Shown here: in pieces, positions 1 to 45,200 of the stretch
Layout of the letters: each line of letters starts with the position of its first letter
Position numbering within the stretch: position 1 is the stretch's first letter
Source: an uncultured virus (IMG/VR IMGVR_UViG_3300045836_000189)
Lineage: Duplodnaviria; Heunggongvirae; Uroviricota; Caudoviricetes
DNA length: 64,000 nt
Reading direction: 5' to 3' (one strand)
Virus record (IMG/VR): IMGVR_UViG_3300045836_000189
Coordinates: 1 to 64,000 of that record
Translations under genes and position numbers: made by a program
The notes under the pieces: generated by a model
What the model was told of the DNA's origin: nothing
Databases searched by the model: none
Seen by the model: only the letters and a program-made list of their open reading frames with translations

Positions 1-72
1 TGATTTCTCACTGTTTCCATACTGGTTCAGATTAAAGCCTGGAAGATGTTCCCCCCCCCAGGCTTAATAGAG

Positions 73-249
73 TTACACTTTCCGGACGGACAGCCGGTTG
101 ATACTTGGTCTGTCAGCAATACATAGATCACTGAACATACTGCTGATTTCATCATGGATAGATTCCTGTGATGATTTGTTTTTTACCAGTACTTTACCGG
201 TAATTCCAATGCCCAGTACCTTGACTGGTTTTCCATTTTGGTTCTTCAT
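73..249 (-). CDS. small hypothetical protein (58 aa)
   Basis: Hand-read ORF MKNQNGKPVKVLG...SVRKV*, on the same strand as neighbours and followed by a hairpin at ~33-66. Confidence 0.5.
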   Translation of the reverse strand: MKNQNGKPVKVLGIGITGKVLVKNKSSQESIHDEISSMFSDLCIADRPSINRLSVRKV

Positions 250-382
250 TGTTAATACGGATTGAGTTTTAAACTACTCCACTATCTGCTACTTTGAATG
301 CACAGATGTTGGGTTACAGCAGTAGAACCTGGTCGGGAATCCCAGATTGTAACGTATGTCCCACTACTGCTGTCATCACCTA

Positions 383-511
383 TTAGTGGTGAATGTCTTC
401 CTCTTCTATTATGTCGTCCCAGACCTCGTCTGGATCCCGCTTGGATAGTACTACTATCCCCACTATAGCCAGGAGTACAAACAGTACTACGACCTTTATT
501 GGATTACTCAT
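383..511 (-). CDS. small membrane protein (42 aa)
   Basis: Hand-read ORF MSNPIKVVVLFVLLAIVGIVVLSKRD...; ATGA overlap with the ATPase stop; one hydrophobic helix and an acidic tail. Confidence 0.5.
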   Translation of the reverse strand: MSNPIKVVVLFVLLAIVGIVVLSKRDPDEVWDDIIEEEDIHH

Positions 512-1275
512 GCTGCCCGGTATGAGTTGGCCAGGATCACATTAACCAGGGACTGATGACCAGCTCCCAGTTTATCTATATGTTCTTCAGGTTTGTCTTT
601 TTGTTTGATATAGATCATCCCGGCTTTATAATCCACACGAAGAGTTTCCAGAATAAAATGCTCATCAAAGCCGTGCATGTGTTTGTTAAACAGCTCTATC
701 AGCTTTGGAGTGGTATTCTGCTCAATGTTCTGGAGCAACTGTTCCATGTACATAATGTCATAGATCCGGTATAGTTCCAGCAATTTGAGTGTATCCGCTT
801 CATTGAGCACACCTGGGTCAATGCCCAGGGTCTTACGGAACTTCAGATACCGTACAATGTCACTGAACAGCCGGGTCTCCTTGCTCATAAATATGGGCAT
901 GGTTCCCTCTGTCAGATTTTCATCCAGAAGATAGGTTACATCTGCTACTTTACCATTTTCCATGGTGATGTTGATGATGTCTCCTACTCCGTACATGAAC
1001 TTCAGCTTGCCGTCCATGTTGTTATCAGTAAATGAATGATCCATTAAGAACTGCAGGTTCTCCTTATCATTGTAAGGCACGCCTATTTTTTTGGCTATAA
1101 GCTTCATGTACAGTTGCATGGTGACAACCCATACCAGCTTTAGCACAAATGTTTTTCCAGTACCGTTTTTTCCAATCAGGACCATAAGCTCACGGTGTTG
1201 CATTTCAGGTATATTCAGCTTGAATGGCTGATTCAGCTCTATTGTAATGGTGTTTAAGTGTCCTAATGAACTCAT
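508..1275 (-). CDS. ABC/AAA_15-21-like P-loop ATPase, C-terminally truncated (no Walker B)
   Basis: Walker A LIGKNGTGKT after N-terminal beta strands; ABC-signature-like LGAGHQ 14 aa before the stop; ATG at 1275 preferred over the upstream TTG. Confidence 0.7.
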   Translation of the reverse strand: MSSLGHLNTITIELNQPFKLNIPEMQHRELMVLIGKNGTGKTFVLKLVWVVTMQLYMKLIAKKIGVPYNDKENLQFLMDHSFTDNNMDGKLKFMYGVGDIINITMENGKVADVTYLLDENLTEGTMPIFMSKETRLFSDIVRYLKFRKTLGIDPGVLNEADTLKLLELYRIYDIMYMEQLLQNIEQNTTPKLIELFNKHMHGFDEHFILETLRVDYKAGMIYIKQKDKPEEHIDKLGAGHQSLVNVILANSYRAA

Positions 1276-1340
1276 AGTGACTAAAATGATAAAGTTAAGA
1301 GCTTCCCATTGGCTCAGGACCTCCGGGAAACTCAAATGTT

Positions 1341-1508
1341 TTAAACAAGTTCTTCTATTTTCTCTTCTGTGGGTTGATTAAGCTTGATCTGCTTTTTCAG
1401 GTTCTTTCCCATGATCAGGCTGTCATATGCCATCTTGCAAAGACCTCCTACAAAGAACAATACGGCAGCTACTGCAAGAGCCACCAGTAGATAATGAAAT
1501 GCGTTCAT
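1341..1508 (-). CDS. small membrane protein (55 aa)
   Basis: Hand-read ORF MNAFHYLLVALAVAAVLFFVGGLC...EELV*. Confidence 0.55.
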   Translation of the reverse strand: MNAFHYLLVALAVAAVLFFVGGLCKMAYDSLIMGKNLKKQIKLNQPTEEKIEELV

Positions 1509-1556
1509 AGTAATAACGGATTAGTGGGTTAGTGATTCTGTTAATAACTTGGTTTT

Positions 1557-1671
1557 TGGCTGGGATGCCCGGACTCGAACCGGGGACCTTCTGGTAACGT
1601 CGGCAATCATCTGCAATAGATGAACATCGGAAATGCCAGTTGCTCTATCCCTCTTTCTGAGCTACATCCCA
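1557..1671 (-). ncRNA. tRNA-like RNA with a 41-nt insert replacing the anticodon loop
   Basis: Acceptor TGGGATG/CATCCCA+G+CCA; D arm GCTC..GAGC; stem CTGG/CCAG; variable loop AGGTC; T arm CCCGG-TTCGAGT-CCGGG. Confidence 0.8.
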
Positions 1672-1702
1672 GTGTATGATAAAGCCAGGCTGATGTTCCT
1701 GG

Positions 1703-2101
1703 CTAAAAGATTTTATGGATAAACGGGTTCAGCTCCTCAAGCTGGCTAACATTCAGCTTCTTAAACCACCTGTAGTATTTGATATACCAGTAACAGGAGT
1801 ATGGATTAAGGAAGGTATAAAATGCATAATGGAGATGAGGGCCGTTCCATGGACCCCCTTTACCAAGAATAAAACACCCTGATTCCTGGTTAAAAGAGAA
1901 TCCTCCGGTTCCGTAGATGAATGCTTTGTTATCCGGGATTGATCCACCCTGTGTAGCCTTATAGAAGGTTTTGTATTTAAGGGTATTATAGACAATCCTG
2001 TAAAACTTCATGTCATTCCATAATATGTATGTGGAACACAGGATTAATAACAGCAGAACAATACCTGATCCTATCAGGAAGGATAAAATGTAGTGATACA
2101 T
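1703..2101 (-). CDS. hypothetical membrane-anchored protein
   Basis: 132-aa ORF with an N-terminal hydrophobic helix. Confidence 0.65.
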   Translation of the reverse strand: MYHYILSFLIGSGIVLLLLILCSTYILWNDMKFYRIVYNTLKYKTFYKATQGGSIPDNKAFIYGTGGFSFNQESGCFILGKGGPWNGPHLHYAFYTFLNPYSCYWYIKYYRWFKKLNVSQLEELNPFIHKIF

Positions 2102-2174
2102 GTTGATTAAAATAAAAGCCCAGGATGTAGAAACACCCCAGGCTAAACCGTCCGACTAAAATGAGTTAATGAGT

Positions 2175-2411
2175 TTATTTGATGCCGTGGTTCATATACA
2201 TGAATACAGCATAGAAATAGACAAATACCATCAGGGTGAGTGTGATCAGCAGCCCGATGTTGTCCATTTGATCGAGGAAGTCATAGTCTTTCTCCATCAG
2301 TCCCCGTTTCTGGGTCTTGCGGATGAACCAACGATATAGTTTAATATCAAACACCGGATATAGCAGTGAGATAGGAAAAACAATGAGGATGGTTAGGATT
2401 AGGGTTTTCAT
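2175..2411 (-). CDS. small two-TM membrane protein
   Basis: Two hydrophobic segments; overlaps the upstream gene stop. Confidence 0.65.
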   Translation of the reverse strand: MKTLILTILIVFPISLLYPVFDIKLYRWFIRKTQKRGLMEKDYDFLDQMDNIGLLITLTLMVFVYFYAVFMYMNHGIK

Positions 2412-2677
2412 GATAAAACCTCCTCCGCATTAGATGTCAGTATTACTTCACTCATGGAGTCTTCAGTCCCGTTATCTACGTAGATGTAGAGCTTATCTGC
2501 TTCAATGTCTCCTACATAGGCTGTATCTCCTGAGAATCCTGTGTCTCTTAAGAGCTTAAAGGTATCCGGATCGTTTTCTTCCATCCTGTCCATGGATAAT
2601 GGTGCCAATGGAAGAACCTGACCAAATGTTTTAATGTTTTCTTTTGCTACCTCTTTGGTGAATTTACGGTAGATCAT
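2408..2677 (-). CDS. hypothetical protein
   Basis: ORF in the tightly packed minus-strand cluster. Confidence 0.65.
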   Translation of the reverse strand: MIYRKFTKEVAKENIKTFGQVLPLAPLSMDRMEENDPDTFKLLRDTGFSGDTAYVGDIEADKLYIYVDNGTEDSMSEVILTSNAEEVLS

Positions 2678-2710
2678 AATGATATGGATTATGTAAATGG
2701 ATTGGGTTAA

Positions 2711-3025
2711 TTACTTATTTAGTTTCTTTTCAAGCTTGTTGAGGGCTGATTCTAACTGGTCTATAAGGGAAGACTCGTCCAGGACGAGCTTATCAAATTT
2801 AATCTGGGAAGCATTTTTATGACCATCCCAGATTAACTTAGCCCCAAGAGGTCTGCCGTCAGCTACTGAGTTCCAGACCCCTTTTATAGTGCCGTATTTC
2901 TTATCCTCCCAGTATTCCCAGTTGATAGCAGCATCAGTATGAAACGTTCCGTCTACTATTTCCTTGCGTGGTCTTACTCTTTTACCAGGAACACAGGTTT
3001 CCAATGTCAATAGTTGCTCTTCCAT
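2711..3025 (-). CDS. hypothetical protein, paralog of 3029-3331 (SH3/KOW-like core)
   Basis: Shared LLTxETCxPGxRVxP N-terminus and SALxxLExKL C-terminus. Confidence 0.7.
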   Translation of the reverse strand: MEEQLLTLETCVPGKRVRPRKEIVDGTFHTDAAINWEYWEDKKYGTIKGVWNSVADGRPLGAKLIWDGHKNASQIKFDKLVLDESSLIDQLESALNKLEKKLNK

Positions 3026-3028
3026 AAG

Positions 3029-3331
3029 TTACTTACCTAGTTTCTGTTCCAGTGTGTCCAGAGCTGATTGTATGTTATCCCAGGAGATGGGCACTGTTAT
3101 AAGGGCAAGATCGTAGAACTCAAGATTGTGATATTCCTCTGCATCAGGTTTGTTGTCCCATACTACGTGTGCATAATTATTCTTATCAGGCCTGTGAATA
3201 ACAGTTCCTTCTGCATTGGGGCCTCCAATCTTTTTTATATACCTTTCAAAACCAGGTTGATTCAGGTGGTGACTTGGCTTAACCCGTGTTCCTGGAATAC
3301 AGGTTTCCTTAGTAAGCAATACTTCACTCAT
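3029..3331 (-). CDS. hypothetical protein, paralog of 2711-3025
   Basis: Same terminal motifs as its neighbour. Confidence 0.7.
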   Translation of the reverse strand: MSEVLLTKETCIPGTRVKPSHHLNQPGFERYIKKIGGPNAEGTVIHRPDKNNYAHVVWDNKPDAEEYHNLEFYDLALITVPISWDNIQSALDTLEQKLGK

Positions 3332-3333
3332 GG

Positions 3334-3648
3334 TTATAACTGCAACAACCTGATTAGTTCTCTGAGATCCTCCTCGTACTCCATATTCCTGGTTAAGGTG
3401 ATTACATCGTCCTTATTCCTATCCGGGCTGGATCCTTCTCTAAGGAAAGCATAATACTCTCCCTTGCCTTTATCATTACACAGTGATAAAGACAATGCTT
3501 TAAAATGATGGAGATTCGTAGCTCCTGGAAAATCAGGAGTAAAGGTTTGATCTACCAGCACCAGCATATAGGACTCCTGGATAAGACTGGGAACATGCTT
3601 GAATCCCAGCTCGTGTAATAGTTTACCGGTGATCTTTGTCTTTTTCAT
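3334..3648 (-). CDS. hypothetical protein
   Basis: 104-aa ORF in the packed cluster. Confidence 0.65.
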   Translation of the reverse strand: MKKTKITGKLLHELGFKHVPSLIQESYMLVLVDQTFTPDFPGATNLHHFKALSLSLCNDKGKGEYYAFLREGSSPDRNKDDVITLTRNMEYEEDLRELIRLLQL

Positions 3649-3664
3649 AGCGGTATGTTTAAAA

Positions 3665-3934
3665 CTATTTTTGGATTACAAACCAGGTAGTTATTTTAAG
3701 GGCTTTTCTCCTGCTATCTGGTATACCTCTATACAACCCATAAACCCTGCTCCAGCTGATAGCTTCATAGAGTAAGGAAAGCAGGGCTCTGTCTTTAAAT
3801 ACAATCCTGTAAAGGTGAGCACATTCTCTGGGATGTGAGTTATGTTTATCCTGAAGGCTCTCCAAAGAGGGAGCATAGACACCGGAAATAAGCTTGAGAA
3901 CTATTAATAAGCTTACAATTAGTAATATGATCAT
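3665..3934 (-). CDS. hypothetical protein with N-terminal hydrophobic segment
   Basis: 89-aa ORF. Confidence 0.5.
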   Translation of the reverse strand: MIILLIVSLLIVLKLISGVYAPSLESLQDKHNSHPRECAHLYRIVFKDRALLSLLYEAISWSRVYGLYRGIPDSRRKALKITTWFVIQK

Positions 3935-4006
3935 GTCTTTTATGAATTAGTTGGCCGTGGATCCTCTCTTACTCCAGGATATAGAGCTATACAGAGGAAT
4001 CAATCC

Positions 4007-4318
4007 CCTGTATAGAGTAATCAGTATGTTCTTATTTTAGTATAACTCTTGGAACCCTCATCATATACGTATAACCAATGATGATCTGATAAGTATATAT
4101 CCCAGCTTTCTTTTGGAAGAGCACAATTAAGTACAATAATGTCTCTAAGTTCCTGAGTAAGATACATGAATGGTATATTGAAGAACACATTAGGAAGCTC
4201 CTTAATGTCCTTAATTATTTTGATTCTTTTATTCATGGTTGATTATTTCGGGTGGATACTATAACAGTTCAAAACCAGGAGAGAGAAAACACATCATCTC
4301 TCCTGTATAGAGTAATCA
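4007..4318. repeat. 17-bp direct repeat CCTGTATAGAGTAATCA (4007-4023, 4302-4318)
   Basis: Exact duplicate; each copy contains the TGA of a minus-strand gene and forms one arm of a hairpin. Confidence 0.75.
4021..4236 (-). CDS. hypothetical protein
   Basis: 71-aa AT-rich ORF bounded by the direct repeats. Confidence 0.55.
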   Translation of the reverse strand: MNKRIKIIKDIKELPNVFFNIPFMYLTQELRDIIVLNCALPKESWDIYLSDHHWLYVYDEGSKSYTKIRTY

Positions 4319-4570
4319 TCCTTTAAGGATAATCTCTTCCTCCAAGTATACTTCTTCTGGAGTACTATTAGCACTTACCATATTGGTCTCTGCCTTATTA
4401 ACCTCCATATAAGCTTGTATCTGTTTGTTAAGTTTCTTTTTTATGGTATCTACATCATCATCCTGATGACAGTATACCATAGTCTGCATGGTTTCACCAA
4501 TTTCCTTGAAATAGGCTTTATATGGTTTACCGTGAGCACTGATTACAATGAGTGTGAGAATGAGCTCCAT
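4316..4570 (-). CDS. hypothetical protein
   Basis: 84-aa ORF. Confidence 0.6.
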   Translation of the reverse strand: MELILTLIVISAHGKPYKAYFKEIGETMQTMVYCHQDDDVDTIKKKLNKQIQAYMEVNKAETNMVSANSTPEEVYLEEEIILKG

Positions 4571-4796
4571 TTGAGTTATAGCTATTTAATCCAGTTGTGA
4601 GAGATGATATATGATAGTTTGAGTGATTTCTGAGGGAGAGAGAAAGTGTGTGTGAGTTATCTCCCAATGACACAGACACACACAAATCCCAAATAAATTC
4701 CAGTACTTAGTGTACTGAATCCACTAAGAAATGATTTATCACCCTATCTGAGTATCAGATAGTTATAACAAATCATTCCCGAGCGGATAGTTTTAC

Positions 4797-5084
4797 TTAG
4801 TGTGATGAGTCTTCATCAGCAACTTTTTGATCAACTTCTTCTTTCATACCAGGTACGGTATCATGGATGTGTTTGATCAGCACATCATTGGTCGTAATGA
4901 GCATGTCCAGCTCACCAGTAATAGCATCAAACATTTTCTTTTCCTCTTCTGATACAGTAGGAGGACAGGTGATTCCTGCTCTGAGCATCTGCAATGCTTC
5001 CTGGTTTGCTTCCAGAGAAGTATACAATGCTTCAATTAAACCAGCTACTACGGCTGCACTGTGTTGGGTTTCTGTCTGTGACAT
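4797..5084 (-). CDS. hypothetical acidic helical protein
   Basis: 95-aa ORF. Confidence 0.65.
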   Translation of the reverse strand: MSQTETQHSAAVVAGLIEALYTSLEANQEALQMLRAGITCPPTVSEEEKKMFDAITGELDMLITTNDVLIKHIHDTVPGMKEEVDQKVADEDSSH

Positions 5085-5214
5085 GGATATATGGATTAAT
5101 GAATAAGCATGATAGTTTTAAGTAGCTCACTGGTGGACCCCCAACTATACTATAGTATATAATACATTGGTATAGTTAGTGGCTCATATATGAGCTACTT
5201 AAAATGATGAGTGA

Positions 5215-5547
5215 TTAGATCCTCTTGATCACAATGGCACGTTTATAATCAGTATAGCCTCTTATCGTGTCCTTGTACTCAATAAGAATAGTCGTATCAT
5301 GAGTTACTTCACAAGGCTCACAGAGTTTATACTCACCATCATAAGAATGAGATCCCCTGCTCAGCATGATCGTGTCACCCTTATCTAAACTCTCATCACC
5401 AGCATTAAAAGTCATGACAGTGTTGTCCTTCATCTTAAGCTTTACTTTGTTATTACTGCAAGAGGCAAGTGATGCCAGCATACCCATTAACAGTACCCAG
5501 AATACAATTCTGGCTACAGTACGGTCTGATAATTCTGTTTGTTTCAT
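5215..5547 (-). CDS. putative lipoprotein
   Basis: Hydrophobic signal followed by lipobox-like LASC. Confidence 0.65.
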   Translation of the reverse strand: MKQTELSDRTVARIVFWVLLMGMLASLASCSNNKVKLKMKDNTVMTFNAGDESLDKGDTIMLSRGSHSYDGEYKLCEPCEVTHDTTILIEYKDTIRGYTDYKRAIVIKRI

Positions 5548-5633
5548 GGTCGGTTTATGTTAATGTATGATGAAAAAGAGCAGCAGCTGTCATCAGTCAG
5601 GATAACCAACTGCTGCATTTTAATAGAGATAAT

Positions 5634-5662
5634 AAAAAAAGAGAAAGCCGTTAGGCTTTCCC
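5634..5662 (-). terminator. intrinsic terminator after 5663-5941
   Basis: GAAAGCC/GGCTTTC hairpin followed by a T run on the minus strand. Confidence 0.6.
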
Positions 5663-5941
5663 TTAGATCAGTGCAGCTGATGCTACCTGGATCTGTTTCA
5701 TCTTGAGCTGGTATTCATAGACCTTAAGCTCAGACATCCTGAATTCATCATTTTCAGCCAGGTATAAGCGGCCTTGATCAGATGTAGCAGTGTTAAGCAT
5801 TACTGCATCACCAACTTGCTTGGTGCGGAGCTCAAAGAATTTGATAGCATTCTTTTTGTAACCGATCTGTAATTCCTGACCATCTTCAGCTGTTAAGATG
5901 ATGTAACCTGTGTTGATTGCTTTGATAGTGAACTTTTTCAT
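5663..5941 (-). CDS. hypothetical protein (first leftward gene)
   Basis: 92-aa ORF with an A-rich leader. Confidence 0.7.
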   Translation of the reverse strand: MKKFTIKAINTGYIILTAEDGQELQIGYKKNAIKFFELRTKQVGDAVMLNTATSDQGRLYLAENDEFRMSELKVYEYQLKMKQIQVASAALI

Positions 5942-6137
5942 TTTATAAGACTTTTTAGATTAATGATGGGGGTATCCCCCTTGCCAGGATAAAGGCCGGG
6001 GTGCTTGATGGGCACTCCTTCACACATCACAACACAGATCCAAAAAATATGGGGGAAAAAAATTTGCAGAAGTGGTTTCACTATACCTATATTAGCCTAT
6101 GTCGGACGGCAATTCACAACTCTTGACTTCTTACCAG

Positions 6138-6173
6138 ACCCGGAGAGATATAACTTCACCGGGTTTCTTTTTT
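6138..6173 (+). terminator. intrinsic terminator-like hairpin
   Basis: ACCCGG...CCGGGT followed by a T-rich tract. Confidence 0.5.
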
Positions 6174-6275
6174 AAGCAAATCCCCTTATCTCCCAGGCTT
6201 TAACACGTAAAGTATTTACCAGATCCCGTATATTTAACCTTCATCACTTTCTTTGCACCCCTAAACCAACGTACT

Positions 6276-6914
6276 ATGAACAAAGTGAGCAAGGACTACT
6301 ATGCTCTGAATCTGACAGACAAGCAGACAGACCGTCTGATCACAAAAGTAGAAGCAGACATCACAATACTCATGCAGGAGATCTCCACAAAGACCGGCCC
6401 ACTCCGGGAAGCGGAGCAGTATTACTTGGAACTGAAACGGGAGCATGACACGATCCAGGGAGAGCTGGATGACAGCAAATCCTTGCTGGAGGCCCTCACC
6501 AGGTTTAAGACCAATGCCAGGAGTACTAAGGAGATCCGTGTGTTGAGAACTACTTCCGTGACCGAGGCCAAGGAGAAACAGAAACGCTACTTCAAATGGA
6601 TCCAGATGGCCATAGAAGTACTGACCAAGGAAGACCGGTACATGAGTCACGAAGAGCTATGGAAGAAGATGCTCCAGACCTTCCCGGAGATAGAGCAGAC
6701 CTTTGGCGGGAACAAGAGCAGGATTGCACAGGTCAGGAACACCACCTTTCATAACTTCAACCGGGCCTGTGAAGAATCCAGGAAGAACAACAGTGGGAAG
6801 CTCATTGATTACCAGAAAAAAATAGGGCTCTTTGGCTGGACCATGGATGACCTGGTACCCGATGCCCAGCACATCAAAGAGTTCATGCATGGGGGCATGA
6901 GAGCAGCCGTGTAA
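6276..6914 (+). CDS. coiled-coil plus winged-HTH (HARE-HTH-like) DNA-binding protein
   Basis: N-terminal heptad pattern; AIEVLTKEDRYMSHEELWKKM resembles the HARE-HTH start. Confidence 0.5.
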   Translation: MNKVSKDYYALNLTDKQTDRLITKVEADITILMQEISTKTGPLREAEQYYLELKREHDTIQGELDDSKSLLEALTRFKTNARSTKEIRVLRTTSVTEAKEKQKRYFKWIQMAIEVLTKEDRYMSHEELWKKMLQTFPEIEQTFGGNKSRIAQVRNTTFHNFNRACEESRKNNSGKLIDYQKKIGLFGWTMDDLVPDAQHIKEFMHGGMRAAV

Positions 6915-6997
6915 AATATATTTGAAATAAGAAGACTTTTTACTATGTTATTATTGAGGCACATGGATAATACAGTCCATCCCTACAAAACCAACAT

Positions 6998-7297
6998 ATG
7001 GAAGAGTTTCACAAGGTCGCAGTTCCCCTTGCAGGAGAGCTGCCAAGCAGGTTTCAGATTGGAGATGAAACAGATTATACCACTATTAAATGGGTAGAAG
7101 AGGCTTTCAGGATAGCCAGGGAGAAACAGCCCGAGGTCAAAGAAGACGAACTTGAATTCATCCCACGCTACAGCCTGGGTAAAGTAAGTGCAATCAGGTT
7201 TACTGAAAGTAAAGTCTATTATGATATTCAGGATAGTTATACCCAGGAAATTACCAGGGATATTCCATCCCATTATGTCAAAAAATTTGCAAAGTAA
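6998..7297 (+). CDS. hypothetical protein
   Basis: 99-aa ORF with an A/C-rich leader. Confidence 0.65.
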   Translation: MEEFHKVAVPLAGELPSRFQIGDETDYTTIKWVEEAFRIAREKQPEVKEDELEFIPRYSLGKVSAIRFTESKVYYDIQDSYTQEITRDIPSHYVKKFAK

Positions 7298-7328
7298 GAG
7301 TTTTTTCTTATATTATTAGTAGGGAGTC

Positions 7329-7359
7329 TTGCTTATGAGCTTCCTTTTAAGTAGATTTG
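7329..7359 (+). promoter_or_regulatory. Bacteroidota sigma-A type promoter of the tRNA operon
   Basis: TTG (7329-7331), 20-nt spacer, TAGATTTG (7352-7359) matching TAnnTTTG. Confidence 0.65.
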
Positions 7360-7364
7360 CATCA

Positions 7365-7445
7365 ATGATTTTAACCACTACATATTGTCACCAGCACCCG
7401 TTCTTCTGGAATCAGATCCAGGGGCCTGGTAATAGTGTGTGGTAA
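7365..7445 (+). CDS. attenuator leader peptide MILTTTYCHQHPFFWNQIQGPGNSVW
   Basis: 26-codon ORF between the promoter and terminator; includes all eight amino acids of the downstream tRNAs; overlaps protector and antiterminator sequences. Confidence 0.75.
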   Translation: MILTTTYCHQHPFFWNQIQGPGNSVW

Positions 7446-7476
7446 CCTCAAGACAACTAAAAACACATCCTATATC

Positions 7477-7509
7477 AAGAGCCCCTGGAGCAACAACCAG
7501 GGGCTTTTT
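7477..7509 (+). terminator. attenuator (intrinsic) terminator upstream of the tRNA cluster
   Basis: AAGAGCCCCTGG-8 nt-CCAGGGGCTTTTT hairpin with U tract, ending 6 nt before tRNA-Pro. Confidence 0.8.
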
Positions 7510-7515
7510 CATTTT

Positions 7516-7588
7516 CTGGATCTATATCAATGGGTAGATTACCCCGTTTGGGGCGGGGAGGCTACAGGTTCGAGTCCTGTGATCCAGA
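7516..7588 (+). tRNA. trnP: tRNA-Pro(TGG)
   Basis: Cloverleaf; CCCCG-TTTGGGG-CGGGG anticodon arm; TTCGA T loop. Confidence 0.9.
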
Positions 7589-7595
7589 CATACAG

Positions 7596-7668
7596 GGAGC
7601 ATTAGCAAAGTTGGTCTATGCAGGGGACTGAAAATCCTCAGATCCTGGTTCGATCCCAGGGTGCTCCA
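7596..7668 (+). tRNA. trnF: tRNA-Phe(GAA)
   Basis: GGGGA-CTGAAAA-TCCTC anticodon arm. Confidence 0.9.
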
Positions 7669-7684
7669 CAGAACAAATCCATAT

Positions 7685-7767
7685 GGGGTAGATGGTAAAC
7701 TGGTTAAATCAGCGGTCTGTAAAACCGTCGTCTTTTGACTATGCAGGTTCGATTCCTGCCTTCCCCA
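7685..7767 (+). tRNA. trnY: tRNA-Tyr(GTA)
   Basis: GCGGT-CTGTAAA-ACCGT arm; long variable arm. Confidence 0.9.
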
Positions 7768-7773
7768 CATCAC

Positions 7774-7848
7774 GGGACCTTAGCTCAGAGGTAGAGCAGC
7801 ACCCTGTTAAGGTGATGGTCACAGGTTCAATCCCTGTAGGTCCCGCCA
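7774..7848 (+). tRNA. trnN: tRNA-Asn(GTT)
   Basis: CACC-CTGTTAA-GGTG arm; encoded CCA. Confidence 0.9.
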
Positions 7849-7851
7849 TAT

Positions 7852-7923
7852 TTTCCTGTAGTGTAGCTGGCAACACAAGAGATTTTGGCTCTCTTATCAC
7901 TGGTTCGAACCCAGTCAGGAAAT
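7852..7923 (+). tRNA. trnQ: tRNA-Gln(TTG)
   Basis: AGAGA-TTTTGGC-TCTCT arm. Confidence 0.88.
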
Positions 7924-7925
7924 CT

Positions 7926-8001
7926 GTGTCTGTAGCTTAATTGGTAGAGCACTGGTTTGTGGCACCAGCAGGTACGGGTTCAACTCCCGTCAGACACCCC
8001 A
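7926..8001 (+). tRNA. trnH: tRNA-His(GTG)
   Basis: CTGGT-TTGTGGC-ACCAG arm; C discriminator plus CCA. Confidence 0.88.
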
Positions 8002-8002
8002 T

Positions 8003-8075
8003 ATCCGTGTAGCTCAATTGGTAGAGCAGCGGTCTCCAAAACCGTGTGTTGGTGGTTCGAGTCCATCCATGGGTG
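8003..8075 (+). tRNA. trnW: tRNA-Trp(CCA)
   Basis: GCGGT-CTCCAAA-ACCGT arm. Confidence 0.9.
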
Positions 8076-8080
8076 CATCA

Positions 8081-8151
8081 GCCTTCTTCGTTCAATGGGA
8101 GGACTACGCACTTGTAATGCGTGTATGCTGGTTCGAGTCCGGCAGAAGGCT
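8081..8151 (+). tRNA. trnT: tRNA-Thr(TGT)
   Basis: ACGCA-CTTGTAA-TGCGT arm. Confidence 0.9.
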
Positions 8152-8206
8152 CCTTGATTATTTCCAGGACATGTTTTACTTTTACGCCCGTAAACCTAAC
8201 GGTCCC

Positions 8207-8656
8207 ATGAAAACGAAAATCATCCTGCTGATTTCCTTCCTGTTTATTTCCCTTAGCTCTTATTGCCAGCTTTCCAACCTTGTTGATCCAATCCGTAAGG
8301 ACGAAGCATTTTGCCGGGCCCTTATGAAAAATGAGAAGGCTACCTGGGAGGACTATGGTCAATCAGGAAAGACCGTACATTATTCCTATCCGGATTACCT
8401 GATCACATTTACCTTCATCAAGAACCGGTGCGTCAATGTGGGCATTGACTTCGTGGTGAACGAGGATATTGTGGACAAAACCATGTATCAGTGGCTTTAT
8501 GATAAAAACTATGAGTCAGCCTTTGGCGGAACTTTGTGGGGTAAGATGCTGCCACAGCCTGGAAGATCAGATGCTTCTTTTCCAGTAGCCGTACAAAAAC
8601 TGGACAGGTCCTCCTGGTGGCTTTATGACGTGCTGTACTATTCAGACAGTCACTAA
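8207..8656 (+). CDS. secreted/periplasmic protein (149 aa)
   Basis: True start MKTKIILLISFLFISLSSYCQ is a Bacteroidota-style signal peptide with Q at +1; the longer ORF call overlaps tRNAs. Confidence 0.65.
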   Translation: MKTKIILLISFLFISLSSYCQLSNLVDPIRKDEAFCRALMKNEKATWEDYGQSGKTVHYSYPDYLITFTFIKNRCVNVGIDFVVNEDIVDKTMYQWLYDKNYESAFGGTLWGKMLPQPGRSDASFPVAVQKLDRSSWWLYDVLYYSDSH

Positions 8657-9159
8657 TGGGGCTTAGGCAACTTCCCGGTTATAATAGCTTCAATGATACC
8701 CTGTTCCGTTTTGACCAGGTAGTCATACATGATCACATTGAGCTTATTGAGTTCCTTATTAGTCCTTTTTAATCCCTCGATCACCAGCTGCTGTTCTCCA
8801 ATACTTTGCCTCATCGTTATATAAGTCTGCAGGAATGCATATGCACTTACAGGCTGGAAATGCCCGTCCTTAGCCAGCCGCACCATCTCCTGGATCCAGG
8901 GGGTCTCATCATACGTCAACGGGTTCACCAGGTCTATCCGGAACACCAGGTTGAATTTCTCTATAAAAGTTTCACTGATTTTTTTTGTCCCACTCATGTA
9001 AGCTGCCAAGGTTGAAGCCGATACACCTACTTTTTTTGCTATGTCTGCATTATTGCGAGCCTTCTTTTTGCGGATCAGGAAATCAACAGCCTGAGTAAGA
9101 GCTTCATGGGAGTGTACCTTGAACAGCTGGTGGTACGTTTTCACTACTTTGTCTGTCAC
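8653..9159 (-). CDS. XRE/CI-like HTH transcriptional regulator
   Basis: NADIAKKVGVSASTLAAYMSGTKKIS HTH; C-terminal coiled coil; TATATTTG box on the minus strand at 9198-9205. Confidence 0.75.
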   Translation of the reverse strand: MTDKVVKTYHQLFKVHSHEALTQAVDFLIRKKKARNNADIAKKVGVSASTLAAYMSGTKKISETFIEKFNLVFRIDLVNPLTYDETPWIQEMVRLAKDGHFQPVSAYAFLQTYITMRQSIGEQQLVIEGLKRTNKELNKLNVIMYDYLVKTEQGIIEAIITGKLPKPH

Positions 9160-9415
9160 GGGTTACTTATTCTTTTGAGGTTTGATATAATTGTTACCAA
9201 ATATACCGCTCTCCAAAACCAGTTCTACAGCAATAACAAATCTTTTAATCTGCTTTTAACCCTACCTACTTAGTAAATAATTTACCAACCTCATTTTGTG
9301 TTCCCCATAACAATCTCTACAGCATACTTTTGCACTGCCTCGTGAAAACCAGTATTCCTATGGGACTTATAGACACTGTAGAATAAGTAGAGTTGCAACC
9401 TACCTAATTCTCTAA

Positions 9416-9462
9416 TAAATTTGTAGAGTTTAAACTTTATAAGTATATTATAGTGTAGGGAG
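9416..9462 (+). promoter_or_regulatory. conserved operon-start motif (TATATTATxxTGTAG), one of several copies
   Basis: Related copies at 7309, 19179, 26121, 34508, 40002 and 51471, all intergenic and upstream of rightward genes. Confidence 0.6.
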
Positions 9463-9482
9463 TCCCCCTAAAACCAACTAAC

Positions 9483-9920
9483 ATGACAAAACAATCCGTA
9501 CCCACTGAAGCTCCCTCAAGGGAGGATAAGATTACAGCTTTGAAAGAGCAGATCGAGCTAAAAGAATACCAGGTGAAACTGCAGGAGCTTAACACCAAGC
9601 TGGCTGTTTTCCGTGCAGATGAACTGGAAGCCTTTGCTAAAATTGCCCACTATTCCAAAAGTGCCCAGCCGGGACAGGGTGACGTGGTAGAACATACCGT
9701 CACAGAAGCAGACCTCCAGAACAACCCTGAGATGATCGAGATGGGCATCAAAGTGGGTGACAGGATAGGCATACCTACTGCAGCCTATGACGCTTTCTTA
9801 AATAAAGTTGACCAGACAGGTCAGGACCTCCAAAAAGAATACATCAGTGAAGAAGCCAAAGCCGAAGCCACTGAAAAAGTTGAGGCCACTGAGCGCAAGC
9901 TGAAGGTGGTCAAAGACTAA
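9483..9920 (+). CDS. hypothetical coiled-coil protein
   Basis: 145-aa ORF downstream of the motif. Confidence 0.75.
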   Translation: MTKQSVPTEAPSREDKITALKEQIELKEYQVKLQELNTKLAVFRADELEAFAKIAHYSKSAQPGQGDVVEHTVTEADLQNNPEMIEMGIKVGDRIGIPTAAYDAFLNKVDQTGQDLQKEYISEEAKAEATEKVEATERKLKVVKD

Positions 9921-10017
9921 AGAGCTTTCCCGGAGCCAGGGGGAAACAACCAACTGAGCATGTTTAAAGGAGTTAAGGATTAAACAGATACTTATCTCCT
10001 GGTTACCGGGAAAATAC

Positions 10018-10173
10018 TGTAGGGTGGTGAAATTGGCAGACACACCGGATTGTCTATCCGGCATTTGATACACAGTGCGTTCTTTAAAAGCTATCATCCA
10101 TTAATATGCATTTGTTGTTTTATTCCCTCTCCCTGTATCAAATATGCTGGTTCGAGTCCAGCCCCTACAGCCA
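10018..10173 (+). ncRNA. 156-nt tRNA-Asp(GTC)-like RNA with an 84-nt variable region
   Basis: Acceptor TGTAGGG/CCCTACA+G+CCA; CCGGA-TTGTCTA-TCCGG arm; 10-bp stem ATTTGATACA/TGTATCAAAT; T arm GCTGG-TTCGAGT-CCAGC. Confidence 0.8.
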
Positions 10174-10227
10174 AAGCGGATCAAACGTGTAGTAACCGCA
10201 GGAGTCCGGACTCCACTACACTCAAAT

Positions 10228-10299
10228 AGCGGGGTAGAGCAGCGGTAGCTCGTGGGTCTCATAATCCCAAGGTCGTGAGTTCGAATCTCACCCCCGCTA
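10228..10299 (+). tRNA. tRNA-Met(CAT), initiator-like
   Basis: AGCGGGG/CCCCGCT acceptor; TGGGT-CTCATAA-TCCCA arm. Confidence 0.85.
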
Positions 10300-10324
10300 C
10301 ACCAAACCAAGAACCAATGACGTA

Positions 10325-10687
10325 ATGGCCACTGTAAACCAAGTTGAGAAACGTGTGAAAATGAATACGTGGGAGATCATAAAATACCAGATCCTGACCC
10401 ACTGTTACTTAAATAAGATCCAGGTGAGTGATGCCGACCTGGAATGCCTGACCCTTCTGAGCGTGCTGGGAGAACAAGAGCTGACTACTTTCTGCACAGA
10501 AGTACACAACAGGAAGATCTTCCGGTCTCCCCAGACCGTGAGGAACGCTTTAAGTAAAGCAGAGAAGAAACATCTCATCGTAAAAGAGGGCCGTACCAAG
10601 AAACGGATCCATATCAACCCCCGTATCAGCGTGCAGACCGCAGGTAACATTATGTTGGACTATAAATTCCTGGCCCTTGCGTCCTAA
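10325..10687 (+). CDS. winged-HTH domain protein
   Basis: SPQTVRNALSKAEKKHLIVK wHTH-like pattern. Confidence 0.55.
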   Translation: MATVNQVEKRVKMNTWEIIKYQILTHCYLNKIQVSDADLECLTLLSVLGEQELTTFCTEVHNRKIFRSPQTVRNALSKAEKKHLIVKEGRTKKRIHINPRISVQTAGNIMLDYKFLALAS

Positions 10688-11084
10688 GAAAGCTAAAGAG
10701 CTGCTGCCCCAGGTGGCGGAGGAACTGGGTCTCCCGGTCAAGATGGTGGAAGATATTCACAACCATTACTGGCGGGAAGTATGGGAGCAACTGACCTCCC
10801 CCAGGAGTATCAAGGTCCATGTAACCAACCTGGGTGATTTCAATACCAAGCACTGGTTGCTTGATAAAGAGATCCGCAAGCTGGAAGCATTCGGAGACCA
10901 TACGAAACTCAAAGGGAACCAACGCTTTGCAGCGGGCATCCGGGTGAGTGAGAAACTTCAGATCCTCTACATGCTTAAAGAGATGGTGGAGGATGAGAAC
11001 CAGAGAAGAGAATTTATATACGAGCACAAGAGAGTCACCCATGAAGCTAAAGAAGAAGAACCTGATACAGATCTGGAAGAGTAA
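10677..11084 (+). CDS. HU/IHF-like DNA-binding protein
   Basis: ELLPQVAEELGL...VHVTNLGDF matches the HU/IHF fold pattern. Confidence 0.55.
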   Translation: MRPKKAKELLPQVAEELGLPVKMVEDIHNHYWREVWEQLTSPRSIKVHVTNLGDFNTKHWLLDKEIRKLEAFGDHTKLKGNQRFAAGIRVSEKLQILYMLKEMVEDENQRREFIYEHKRVTHEAKEEEPDTDLEE

Positions 11085-42230: not shown

Positions 42231-45200
42231 ATGCCAGGCCAACCATCCCAAAATAATTCTACCTCCAACGCTGTTACCAACCTCTTCTCCAAGGGGCTCA
42301 ACAAGGACTACAATGAGAGCTTCCTGGGAGAAGGTGTATGGACACATGCCCGTAATGCAGTGAACAATTCCCATGACGGGCAGAAGGGTGTACTGGGTAA
42401 TGAACCTAGTAACCTCAGGTGCGTACAGCTTCCTTACACCTATATTGGCTCGATCCCTCTGCTGGGAGATGAGTGGGCTATTTTTACCACAGATGATACC
42501 AGCTGTGAGATCGGTATCTTCAATGAAGCCCAGTGCAGCTATATCAAAGTAGTAAACGATCCCGGACTGGGTTTTAAGCGTACCAACCTGATCACAGGTG
42601 TGTACCGGCAAACCTTCAACTGTGGACGCAAGATCTACTGGAGTGACGCCCTGAACCCGGACCGCTGCATGAACCTGGACAATCCTCCTTACGTGCAGCA
42701 GAAGGTCCTGAGTGGCAGCTGCTATATTGATACCAATACTTCCCAGCTGGACATCGAGGCCCTCAGACTGGCTCCGCTATTAACTATCCCCACACTCGGG
42801 CTGAAAAAAGGAAAAGGATCCGGCACCCTTGCCAATGGTACCTACCAGGTGGCTATTGCATACACGGTGAATGAAATCCGGGTAACAGATTACCTGGTGC
42901 TTTCCCCTGAGCAGCCCCTGTTCTCCCATGAGAACCTCTCAGGCTCCCTGGAGTTATCCGTTACCGGCACTGATCCGGAGTTTGATGAGATGGAAGTGGT
43001 GATCATTTCCACAGTAAATGCCAACACTGTGGTAAAACGCCTGGGCATCTACTCTACTGCCCAGAGCACGATCTATATTGATACCATTGATAATTCCCTG
43101 CCTACTATTCCCATCAGCCTGATCCCGCTGCGTACACCAGCCATAGAAAAATCAGACAGTATCTGGGGCGTGGGAAGCTACCTGCTTCGTCTGGGCATCT
43201 ATCCCAAACAGGAGCTGAACTACCAGCCACAGGCCAACAAGATCGTGACCAAGTGGGTGGCTGTAAAATACCCTGCTGATTACTACCTCAAGGGTGGAAA
43301 CAAAGCCTCTTACATGAGGGATGAGCAGTACCCCTTCTTTATCCGCTGGATTTATAATACAGGGGACCGTACAGCCTCTGCTCATATTCCAGGACGTGCT
43401 CCGCTCACAGATGATCTGGCACTGGTCACCAATGCAGATGCCATAGAGCTTTCTTATGATGGTAGTACGCCACAGAGATGGCAGGTATATAACACGGCTT
43501 CCGTGACCGCCAATACTGCCACACAGACTCCTGATGGTGGTACTATTGTCATGGAAGGTCAAATGGGATACTGGCAGAGCTCTGAGATCTACCCGGATGA
43601 CAAACCGGAGATCTGGGGAAATCTATGTGGTAAACATATCCGGCATCATAAATTCCCAGATAACTCCCTGGTTCCGCACTTCTCTGATAACGGGTCAACT
43701 ATTACGATCCTGGGCGTGAAGTTTGAGAACATCACCCACCCGCTGGATGATAACGGGAACCCTATTACCTCCATTGTAGGATACGAGATCCTGCGTGGCT
43801 CCAGGGAAGGGCAGAAGACTGTAATTGCCAAAGGCATTATCAATAACATGCGGGAGTATACCATCACCGGTAACACTGACATGCAGGGCCTGTTTCAGAA
43901 CTACCCTTATAACGATTTACGTGCAGACAGCTTCCTGACCCCTGAAAGACAGAAGGGAGACAATGGTGCTGCCAATGCACACTCCTCCAAGCTGAGTGGG
44001 TATAAGAAGGACATCTTCTCTTTCCACTCTCCGGAGACCACTTTTAACAAGCCTTTTCTGTCAGCAGAAGAGCTGAAGATCTATGGGGAAGTTTCCGGTA
44101 CCGCTGTGGGGCGTTTTGAGACCCCTTACAAGCATCCTAAGTTTAAGCTGACTACTAATGCCGATGACGTAATTGGAGACATTATAGGAGTCCTGAGTGC
44201 GCTTAATTCCTTTACCAGTGGTATAGATATAGGAGCTACCGAAGACTATCCCATTGGATTAAAAATAGGTCCGCTTCCTCCGCTTCCCTATATGCCACTG
44301 GACTTCTATGGCGTGGTGGATTCTGATCCGGCAGGACAGATTGCAAACTGGGCTACCTGGGGTGTACAGGCTATTGAATTTGCTGCTGCAGCTGTAAGCC
44401 TCATCACTACCATTGGCAAGTTTGCAGAGCTGGAAAAGGAGAAGTTCTTTTCCCTGATGCGTACCCTCATCCCAAAGGTGCAGTATGGAGCCCAGTATGT
44501 CAGTCATGGATTCTATGACAGTTACCAGGCTGCCCAGGAAGGTCAGACACGCAAGCTCATTACCAAGAGTAACTACCTGACAGATAACCTGCAGACTTTC
44601 AACAGCAAGTACCAGGTGAATAATATTTTCCGTGGGGCTTCTGTGATTGTTCAAACCGGCAGTGAAGTTCCGGATCCTTCTACCCAGGATCAGAGCCGTA
44701 AACTTCTCTCTGAAGCCGGAGTGGATCTGTATCAGAATTTCACTACCCCGATCAGCTCACACTATGTAGGGCTTAAAGTGAACTTATCCGCCCAGTACGG
44801 ACAGATAGATTCCATCAAGCAGCTGCCTATCATGAGTGGGATCATCCGCACTCTTCCAGTGAGGAACCAGAAGTTCACTTCTGATATTCTCTTTGGCGGA
44901 GATACGTACATCAACCGATTCACGGAGAAAAATTCCTTCTTCTATTTCTATGACTGGCTCTTTGACATGCCGGATGAATTCCAGTATGATTATACGCTCT
45001 ATGTCAACGTACCTTACCCAAGATTCTGGGTTAACAATGAGCAGTATAACCGTAGCATCTTAAAGGTCTCCTCCAATTACCGTGTCCTGGATGCCAGGGA
45101 TTCCACTGCTACCTATGTGAAGAAGGGTTACTTCTACCTGTTCAACTCAGGAGTGCGCGACTTCTTTGTGGAAAGTGAAGTGAACCTGGCCCTTCGTGAC

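Follow-up and report, generated by a model that had tools for sequence, protein, structure and literature searches.

Why phages carry transfer RNA (tRNA) genes is a long-standing question, the usual suggestions being that they compensate for codon usage, replace host tRNAs that have been degraded, or evade anticodon nucleases. The locus described here raises a related question, namely what decides when such genes are transcribed. In the first 64 kb (positions 1 to 64,000, referred to as the window) of a 136,295-bp record of an uncultured virus (IMG/VR IMGVR_UViG_3300045836_000189, hereafter G000), a cluster of eight tRNA genes is preceded by a short open reading frame (ORF) rich in codons for the very amino acids carried by those tRNAs, and by an intrinsic terminator. 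We consider it likely that a ribosome-mediated (leader-peptide) transcription attenuator gates this eight-tRNA operon of a crAss-like soil phage. A preliminary description of this DNA had likened its layout to the trp, his and thr attenuators, and as far as sequence analysis reaches the likeness is borne out: the ORF, control codons within region 1, three helices and the terminator are all present, and every structural feature of ribosome-mediated attenuators that can be sought in sequence is found at the locus.

The cluster itself consists of eight genes lying head to tail on the plus strand at 7516–8153 (ARAGORN; Rfam tRNA), in the order tRNA-Pro(tgg) (7516–7589), tRNA-Phe(gaa) (7596–7669), tRNA-Tyr(gta) (7685–7768), tRNA-Asn(gtt) (7774–7848), tRNA-Gln(ttg) (7852–7924), tRNA-His(gtg) (7926–8001), tRNA-Trp(cca) (8003–8076) and tRNA-Thr(tgt) (8081–8153), all eight as named in the preliminary description. 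Upstream of it, and likewise on the plus strand, the leader ORF (7365–7445) extends from an ATG at 7365 to a TAA at 7443–7445 and encodes the 26-codon peptide MILTTTYCHQHPFFWNQIQGPGNSVW, its start, stop and translation being as first described. Matched against the tRNA set, codons 4–17 (7374–7415, plus strand, TTTYCHQHPFFWNQ) cover every one of the eight amino acids that the downstream tRNAs carry. Of these 14 control codons, 13 fall within the set, the sole exception being Cys, again in agreement with the earlier claim. Such a composition is rare. Over the six frames of the 136-kb genome, stop-free 14-codon windows with at least 13 in-set residues number three in 149,655, and the leader alone contains all eight. 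It is also the shortest stretch of the genome to cover the eight amino acids, doing so in 11 codons. In 60 Markov-random genomes covers of 11 codons or fewer occurred 156 times (about 2.6 per genome), and the chance of finding one within 150 nt upstream of the cluster is about 1.4e-3. Turning the comparison around, the real tRNA set fitted the upstream 220 nt better than any of 6000 random eight-amino-acid sets.

The start of the leader suggests how its transcript may begin. The octamer TAGATTTG (7352–7359, plus strand) matches the Bacteroidota-type -7 box (TAnnTTTG) and is a candidate promoter element, and the A of the leader ATG lies 6 nt past its last G, so placed that the leader mRNA would probably be leaderless or nearly so. 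Immediately 5' of the ATG stands ATTTGCATCA, which is conserved in the sister phage introduced below, while the sequence farther upstream is unrelated.

Competing helices and the position of the ribosome

Folded as a whole, the leader reaches -53.4 kcal/mol (z = -6.35), a value that none of 200 shuffled sequences equalled. Four plus-strand regions account for this structure. Region 1 (7377–7416), which overlaps the control codons, forms the left arm of a protector hairpin 1:2 in the minimum free energy (MFE) fold. Region 2 (7417–7443) may pair alternatively with region 1 or with region 3 (7464–7489), its antiterminator partner, of which 7477–7489 serves also as the 5' arm of the intrinsic terminator 3:4. 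This terminator, with its U-rich tail, occupies 7477–7515 and reaches the first base of tRNA-Pro. The protector 1:2 (7377–7443) is predicted at -30.9 kcal/mol (z = -4.81, equalled by none of 200 shuffles), the antiterminator 2:3 (7417–7489) comprises 23 pairs at -29.3 kcal/mol (z = -4.25, again 0 of 200), and the terminator stem (7477–7508) lies at about -20.9 kcal/mol (z = -5.75). Folding of the alternatives thus yields three helices that are mutually exclusive, each with a z of -4.2 or below. The long protector hairpin of the preliminary description retains its arms in this analysis, but its register differs slightly from the ACCAC/GTGGT pairing first drawn, since the MFE fold pairs 7377–7443.

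The intrinsic terminator expected before tRNA-Pro was found at 7477–7508, a stem of 12 pairs (7 of them G-C) followed by the T-rich sequence TCATTTT and ending 7 nt before the tRNA gene. Since this tail extends right up to the start of tRNA-Pro, there is no room for a promoter belonging to the cluster itself. The antiterminator rests on an exact match, in that TCCAGGGGC (7417–7425) is the perfect reverse complement of GCCCCTGGA (7481–7489) in the terminator 5' arm. When the 116 nt upstream were resampled 20,000 times under a Markov model, perfect complements of at least 9 nt to this arm arose in 64 cases (P = 0.0032). The 9-nt complement is therefore as first stated, and the helix is stronger than had been claimed, because the distal part of region 2 pairs in addition with 7464–7476, giving 23 pairs and -29.3 kcal/mol as against -20.8 kcal/mol for the terminator.

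The dependence of these helices on a translating ribosome was followed by mask folding, in which the ribosome footprint was masked (with a narrower and a wider mask) and the transcript was cut before region 4, and by equilibrium folding of the full leader. On the cut transcript the core of helix 2:3 forms with 10 pairs when the ribosomal A site is on any of codons 1–14, with 8 pairs at Trp-15 and 5 at Asn-16, and not at all (0 pairs) at codons 17–25. In these mask-fold models the productive stall zone, codons 1–15, coincides with the run of in-set codons.

A mechanism consistent with this geometry may be outlined as follows. Transcription would start just upstream of the leader AUG, or at the AUG itself. 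If, as we infer, the ORF is translated, quick reading of codons 4–15 (Thr, Tyr, His, Gln, Pro, Phe, Trp) would bring the ribosome onto region 2 or off the transcript, whereupon 1:2 would pair, the terminator 3:4 would form directly before tRNA-Pro and the tRNA genes would go untranscribed. Scarcity of a matching charged tRNA would instead stall the ribosome so that it covers region 1, and the 23-pair 2:3 antiterminator could then form, block the terminator and allow RNA polymerase to enter the tRNA cluster, possibly together with the ORF at 8207–8656. The new tRNAs would be precisely what translation of the leader measures, so that the circuit would exert negative-feedback control over supply, in effect a tRNA homeostat, and the loop would be self-limiting because its products speed up the codons being measured.

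The sister phage and unrelated tRNA clusters

A natural exchange at this locus is provided by a second IMG/VR genome, G001, which measures 136,320 bp, has terminal repeats and, along most of its sequence, matches G000 at 97–99% identity. Window positions 6953–7743 are replaced in G001 (G001:C1:84454-85250) by a cassette carrying a different upstream gene, a diverged leader and a different tRNA-Pro, and lacking tRNA-Phe and tRNA-Tyr, which leaves a cluster of Pro, Asn, Gln, His, Trp and Thr. Both types of cassette occur in contigs of one soil sample, and the four DNA runs of that sample yielded no third variant. The G001 leader, MIFNNPFHQQPNFWNPFQGPGDGMW, has 25 codons, begins with an ATG directly after the conserved ATTTGCATCA and stops after TGG, so that the two leaders differ in length by exactly one codon. 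Of the six frames, that of the leader is the sole one to keep both start and stop in the two genomes, and an in-frame TAG 15 nt upstream of the G001 ATG means that no longer ORF is possible there. The remaining frames fare differently: a 44-aa minus-strand ORF in G000 (7378–7512) is broken by stops in G001, and the other plus-strand frames are not conserved.

All three states recur when the diverged leader is folded, with z values of -2.42, -3.51 and -4.72 for 1:2, 2:3 and 3:4, respectively, and with the same dependence on ribosome position; 1:2 is the default on the truncated transcript. One compensatory change converts a C-G pair of the terminator into T-A (7483/7502), and in 2:3 it leaves a G-U pair. 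The turnover of codons says more. Each of the 16 codons 3–18 of the G001 leader specifies F, N, P, H, Q or W, the single Cys having disappeared. By hand count all nine substitutions within codons 3–18 give residues of the G000 set, as opposed to none of three within codons 19–26 (Fisher 1/220), a pattern indicating that turnover of the leader preserves the amino-acid set and not the peptide. Tyr codons, moreover, are absent from the G001 leader together with tRNA-Tyr from its cluster.

No third relative appeared in the collections searched. In viral contigs the leader patterns retrieved nothing or G001 only, and words from tRNA-Asn and tRNA-Pro likewise G001 only or nothing; a scan of genome contigs for relatives gave 0 matches, GenBank phages gave matches at the level of the tRNAs only, and the neighbouring 212-aa protein matched G001 only. 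The sole match of the metagenome scan (L031) was set aside as chance, being a high-GC coding region devoid of tRNAs. Among 20 relatives identified through the terminase (58–71% identity, L002–L021) there was no tRNA cluster near the terminase, the sole tRNA being a tRNA-Asp in L004.

Whether the arrangement recurs beyond this pair was addressed by retrieving viral loci through generic tRNA D-arm words, a choice blind to upstream content, in two samples of 80. A cluster qualified with three or more tRNAs, 2–12 different amino acids and no less than 100 nt of upstream sequence; once duplicates, clusters at contig ends and sets below or above this size had been removed, 48 + 45 = 93 remained, besides G000 and G001. 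The upstream region of each was given a score for the tRNA set of its cluster, and this score was ranked among those of 400–500 decoy sets. Four of the 93 attained a rank p of 0.01 or less, compared with one reverse complement (p = 0.010) and no downstream region among equal numbers of controls. The leaders in question, each translated to its stop, are MFTSFSTQTVPAAAARPWPTVSQGGVM before a Pro Ala Arg Trp cluster (L045), MKTLNTTNSSTAPVNLGGLLL before Thr Asn Pro Ser Ser (L081), MKNNTQQQYQPQPYPMDSGGSIVV before Tyr His Pro Gln (L186) and MRTINKHKHFSKSSKWFSNKSELGTGKVLCLFFEDLTTL before Lys His Phe Lys Trp Trp Lys His Phe Lys (L194). All four have a short ORF started by ATG and then a hairpin and T-run before the first tRNA; their sequences are unrelated, and their sets (A/P/R/W, N/P/S/T, H/P/Q/Y and F/H/K/W) differ. 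When all 4845 four-amino-acid sets were enumerated, 3 reached the score of L045 and 36 that of L081. The latter shows the same ribosome-position-dependent 2:3 switch, and L045 a variant of it without a clear protector.

Such a terminator, a hairpin with a T-run, lies no more than 60 nt from the first tRNA in 11 of the 93 clusters, and leader matches fall on 4 of these 11 as against 0 of the 82 without one; the probability that all four should be found among the terminator-preceded clusters, C(11,4)/C(93,4), is 1.1e-4 by hand calculation. The design of leader plus terminator thus recurs in unrelated phages, at roughly 4% of clusters. Two further upstream regions with low ranks (L072, p = 0.025, and L066, p = 0.042) seem to be the tail ends of ordinary genes, have no terminator and were not counted. 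Two other clusters may be recorded alongside. On the minus strand of L045, a second cluster (Met Thr Thr Thr Val, its first tRNA ending at 3102) is preceded by a short ORF, MSFKHQVERTHDRNIMGTRVPGVTG up to its stop, and an 11-pair terminator, its M/T/V match being not significant (rank p = 0.31). On the plus strand of L069 a Pro-Gln-Tyr cluster (first tRNA at 2148) follows a 9-pair terminator and the window QYQPKGGKPQ, in which all three amino acids occur, a possible further weak example (rank p = 0.13).

Weighing the attenuator against other explanations

Several observations weigh against the attenuator as outlined above, the first of them concerning its physics. Equilibrium folds of the full leader keep 11–12 terminator pairs at all 27 ribosome positions, and because equilibrium folding never removes the terminator, any antitermination would have to act kinetically, as it does in the classic systems. 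When the ribosome is placed on the stop codon, the mask model leaves 7417–7427 free and predicts 10 pairs of 2:3, which, if sterically possible, would weaken the OFF state; in the same model G001 has no such stop-codon pairing. The sensing codons are also not all equally well placed. For Asn the sole control codon is number 16, a site from which a stalled ribosome already reaches into region 2, and in the mask folds a stall at Gln-17 gives no antiterminator, while under standard wobble ACC and ACT are not read by the anticodon UGU, which makes the Thr inputs marginal. The preliminary description had spoken of an eight-input OR gate; inputs from several amino acids are still predicted, but eight is too neat a number, given the marginal positions of Asn-16 and Gln-17 and the two Thr codons that UGU does not serve. 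Evidence from covariation is thin, in that the leader family consists of two sequences with one compensatory pair between them, and in the MAFFT alignment 9 of 24 pairs of 1:2 and 4 of 23 pairs of 2:3 are broken in G001, because the stems have been re-registered and are not conserved column by column. Lastly, crAss-like phages encode RNA polymerases of their own, and the enzyme that reads the leader may be one of these.

The fit between leader and cluster is itself imperfect in the sister phage, and here the strongest rival finds its footing. The G001 leader has four Phe codons, with no tRNA-Phe anywhere in the genome even when introns are allowed in the search, and no Thr codon in spite of the tRNA-Thr in its cluster; scored against its own six amino acids it has 12 of 16 codons in the set, a level reached by 46 of 6000 decoys. 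Co-variation of leader and cluster, proposed in the preliminary description as a check, is hence seen for Tyr, lost from both, but not for Phe and Thr. A homologous leader that lost its frame or its tRNA match was named there as contrary evidence, and G001 keeps frame, start, stop and all three states, with a tRNA match that is partial. A recent cassette exchange could explain the mismatch, given breakpoints at 6953 and at the tRNA preceding Asn. Alternatively, the element may be a translation-dependent attenuator that reports on general translation status or amino-acid supply, as in starvation or late-infection exhaustion, and not on the specific tRNAs downstream, the overlap in amino acids then reflecting a shared cause such as codons for which the host is generally poor. 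Apart from the G001 mismatches, this is favoured by the control codons ACC, ACT, CAG, CCG, TAT and AAT, which are not Watson-Crick cognates of the phage anticodons. It is opposed by the decoy test of G000, in which no random set did as well as the real one, and by the four unrelated phages, whose leaders match quite different tRNA sets, so that a single general scarcity is hard to uphold; we regard it as unlikely, if the most serious of the rivals.

A smaller probability attaches to the suggestion that the hairpin is the ordinary terminator of the upstream gene, that ORF and 9-mer are coincidental, and that the tRNAs are transcribed by leaky read-through or from an unrecognised promoter. Very many windows were screened, so that coincidences at the 1e-3 level are to be expected, and the positional probability for the cover alone is of just this order. 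Nor does the promoter candidate help, for the TAnnTTTG motif of the preliminary description is present as TAGATTTG, but its promoter role is putative and the motif (TANNTTTG) is not enriched within the window (31 found, 40 expected), a further point against the attenuator reading. A single coincidence at the 1e-3 level would indeed not be enough, because of the breadth of the screen, yet the conjunction of independent features goes well beyond it: the codon match, the improbable complement, the non-random 2:3 helix and the agreement of stall zone with in-set run come together independently. The ORF frame, start, stop and three states have moreover survived in G001 while the control-codon half, tRNA-Pro and the upstream gene diverged, and leader match and terminator co-occur in the sampled clusters.

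Equally improbable is a switch that works without translation, through a protein or RNA effector (T-box-like, for instance) or through tRNA-processing signals, the ORF being irrelevant or encoding a functional micropeptide: the structures alone are strongly non-random and the 3' half of the leader (regions 2–4, about 85% identical) is better conserved than its coding 5' half, but the codon/tRNA match and the set-preserving substitutions are left unexplained, a functional peptide is disfavoured because its N-terminal half is poorly conserved, and a cmscan of 6500–11000 at E <= 1 gave no match to T-box or to the Rfam leader families (His_leader, Thr_leader, Trp_leader, Leu_leader and others). 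The non-tRNA matches in that interval were two weak hits to YrlA and one to Plastid-ycf2, within the tRNA cluster and far below gathering scores.

The ribosome-mediated attenuator therefore remains the explanation that we favour for G000. A broader proposal commands less confidence, and we incline to it only slightly: that phages run their own tRNA genes by demand, using as a speedometer a leaderless mini-ORF composed of the codon classes of the downstream tRNAs, whose output, the tRNAs, would feed back on the measurement and make the circuit a self-setting homeostat, independently evolved in about 4% of clusters, which would switch on replacement tRNAs when those of the host are depleted, cleaved or out-competed. 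A role against tRNA-cleaving host defences (PrrC, PARIS, retron-PtuAB), as proposed in the preliminary description, would be a plausible but conjectural use of such a circuit.

Phage setting and comparison with known systems

The crAss-like affiliation of G000 follows from its gene set, which includes a terminase (phrog_6681), a portal (phrog_6547), a major head protein and giant virion proteins. Within the window, a plus-strand ORF of more than 3144 aa at 54569–64000 continues past the window end and, together with a virion protein of 1798 aa at 42231–47627, is typical of crAss-like phages. The DNA runs that contain G000 are soil or rhizosphere metagenomes. Shine-Dalgarno cores are rarer before its genes (9 of 90 long ATG-started ORFs) than at random positions (15%), and the regions upstream of genes are G-poor and A-rich. 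Depletion of Shine-Dalgarno sequences is a property of the phylum Bacteroidota, and since it fits, a Bacteroidota-like host is suggested, in agreement with the TAnnTTTG box.

Downstream of the cluster, a 149-aa ORF (8207–8656, plus strand) begins with a signal-peptide-like segment (MKTKIILLISFLFISLSSYC...) and belongs to no PHROG family. Between it and tRNA-Thr the only terminator call falls within the tRNA itself, and the ORF possibly shares the read-through transcript and thereby the control of the attenuator.

Other tRNA-like genes of the two phages lie apart from the cluster. One with an insert of about 76 nt (10018–10173, plus strand; Rfam tRNA 39 bits over 10018–10170, called Thr(tgt) with intron by aragorn -i) stands just upstream of tRNA-Met (10228–10300) and is conserved in G001 (87526–87681). 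On the minus strand at 1557–1671, aragorn -i calls a tRNA-Ala(ggc) with insert i(38,26) in both genomes; this putative gene scores 41 bits (Rfam tRNA) at the G001 copy, and the gathering-threshold scan of window 1–6500 returned nothing. Outside the window a poorly formed tRNA-like gene (G000:C1:116625-116698, minus strand) is called Gln(ttg), and its counterpart in G001 (G001:C1:56971-57042) Ser(tga), the difference being due to a single substitution in the anticodon stem, which alters where the loop is called. No comparable leader ORF or terminator was seen upstream of the Ile-tat tRNA, the Gln/Ser-like tRNA, or tRNA-Met and its insert-bearing neighbour in G000.

If the attenuator reading is correct, phage tRNA genes can be conditional and not constitutive, the signal being the speed of ribosomes on specific codons, and classic attenuation, which governs amino-acid synthesis genes and a synthetase operon, would extend to tRNA genes, in which the product is the very molecule sensed. 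Such an element would amount to a small natural device that senses tRNA availability through several inputs and might be put to use as a tool. The two cassette variants, in near-identical genomes and coexisting in one soil sample, amount to a natural swap experiment. The preliminary description knew of no equivalent in phages, and this holds for the literature searched: leader-peptide control of tRNA genes was not found in the full texts covered, subscription-only papers and bioRxiv supplements lying outside their scope.

Among the enterobacteria, leader-peptide attenuators include thrL (Thr and Ile), ilvL/ivbL (Ile/Leu/Val), trpL, hisL, pheL and leuL. Those of the thrL and ilvL type share with the present locus a short ORF, regulatory codons in region 1, mutually exclusive 1:2, 2:3 and 3:4 helices, a terminator and the sensing of several amino acids. 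They differ in what they gate, which is biosynthetic enzymes and not tRNAs, whereas here the quantity sensed and the product belong to the same class of molecule. They also differ in composition, for enterobacterial leaders contain long runs of one to three amino acids, and the phage leader fits eight amino acids into 14 codons, most of them represented once or twice and none more than three times; it resides, furthermore, in a phage, on a probably leaderless mRNA, and has no sequence similarity to the Rfam leader families. Closer in its target is the pheM leader of the pheST attenuator of Escherichia coli, a chromosomal element that responds to a single amino acid and controls an aminoacyl-tRNA synthetase. 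Like the locus described here, it is a case of leader-peptide attenuation acting on a component of the translation apparatus and not on amino-acid synthesis. T-box riboswitches similarly couple the charging of tRNA to read-through of a terminator by way of a competing antiterminator, but they bind uncharged tRNA directly, independently of translation, and possess a conserved fold of which the locus shows no match.

Of the published accounts, passages of PMC2836559 concern LeuL and PheL only. For the leaderless start the nearest precedent comes from mycobacteria, in which leaderless poly-Cys short ORFs are reported to act as Cys-responsive attenuators of cysteine-metabolism operons (10.1101/834739). 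These resemble the phage leader in that a leaderless short ORF sets the downstream response through its codon content. The mycobacterial elements are not of phage origin, are not shown to use a three-helix terminator switch and have no tRNA genes under their control (10.1101/834739), the features by which the locus of G000 differs from them.

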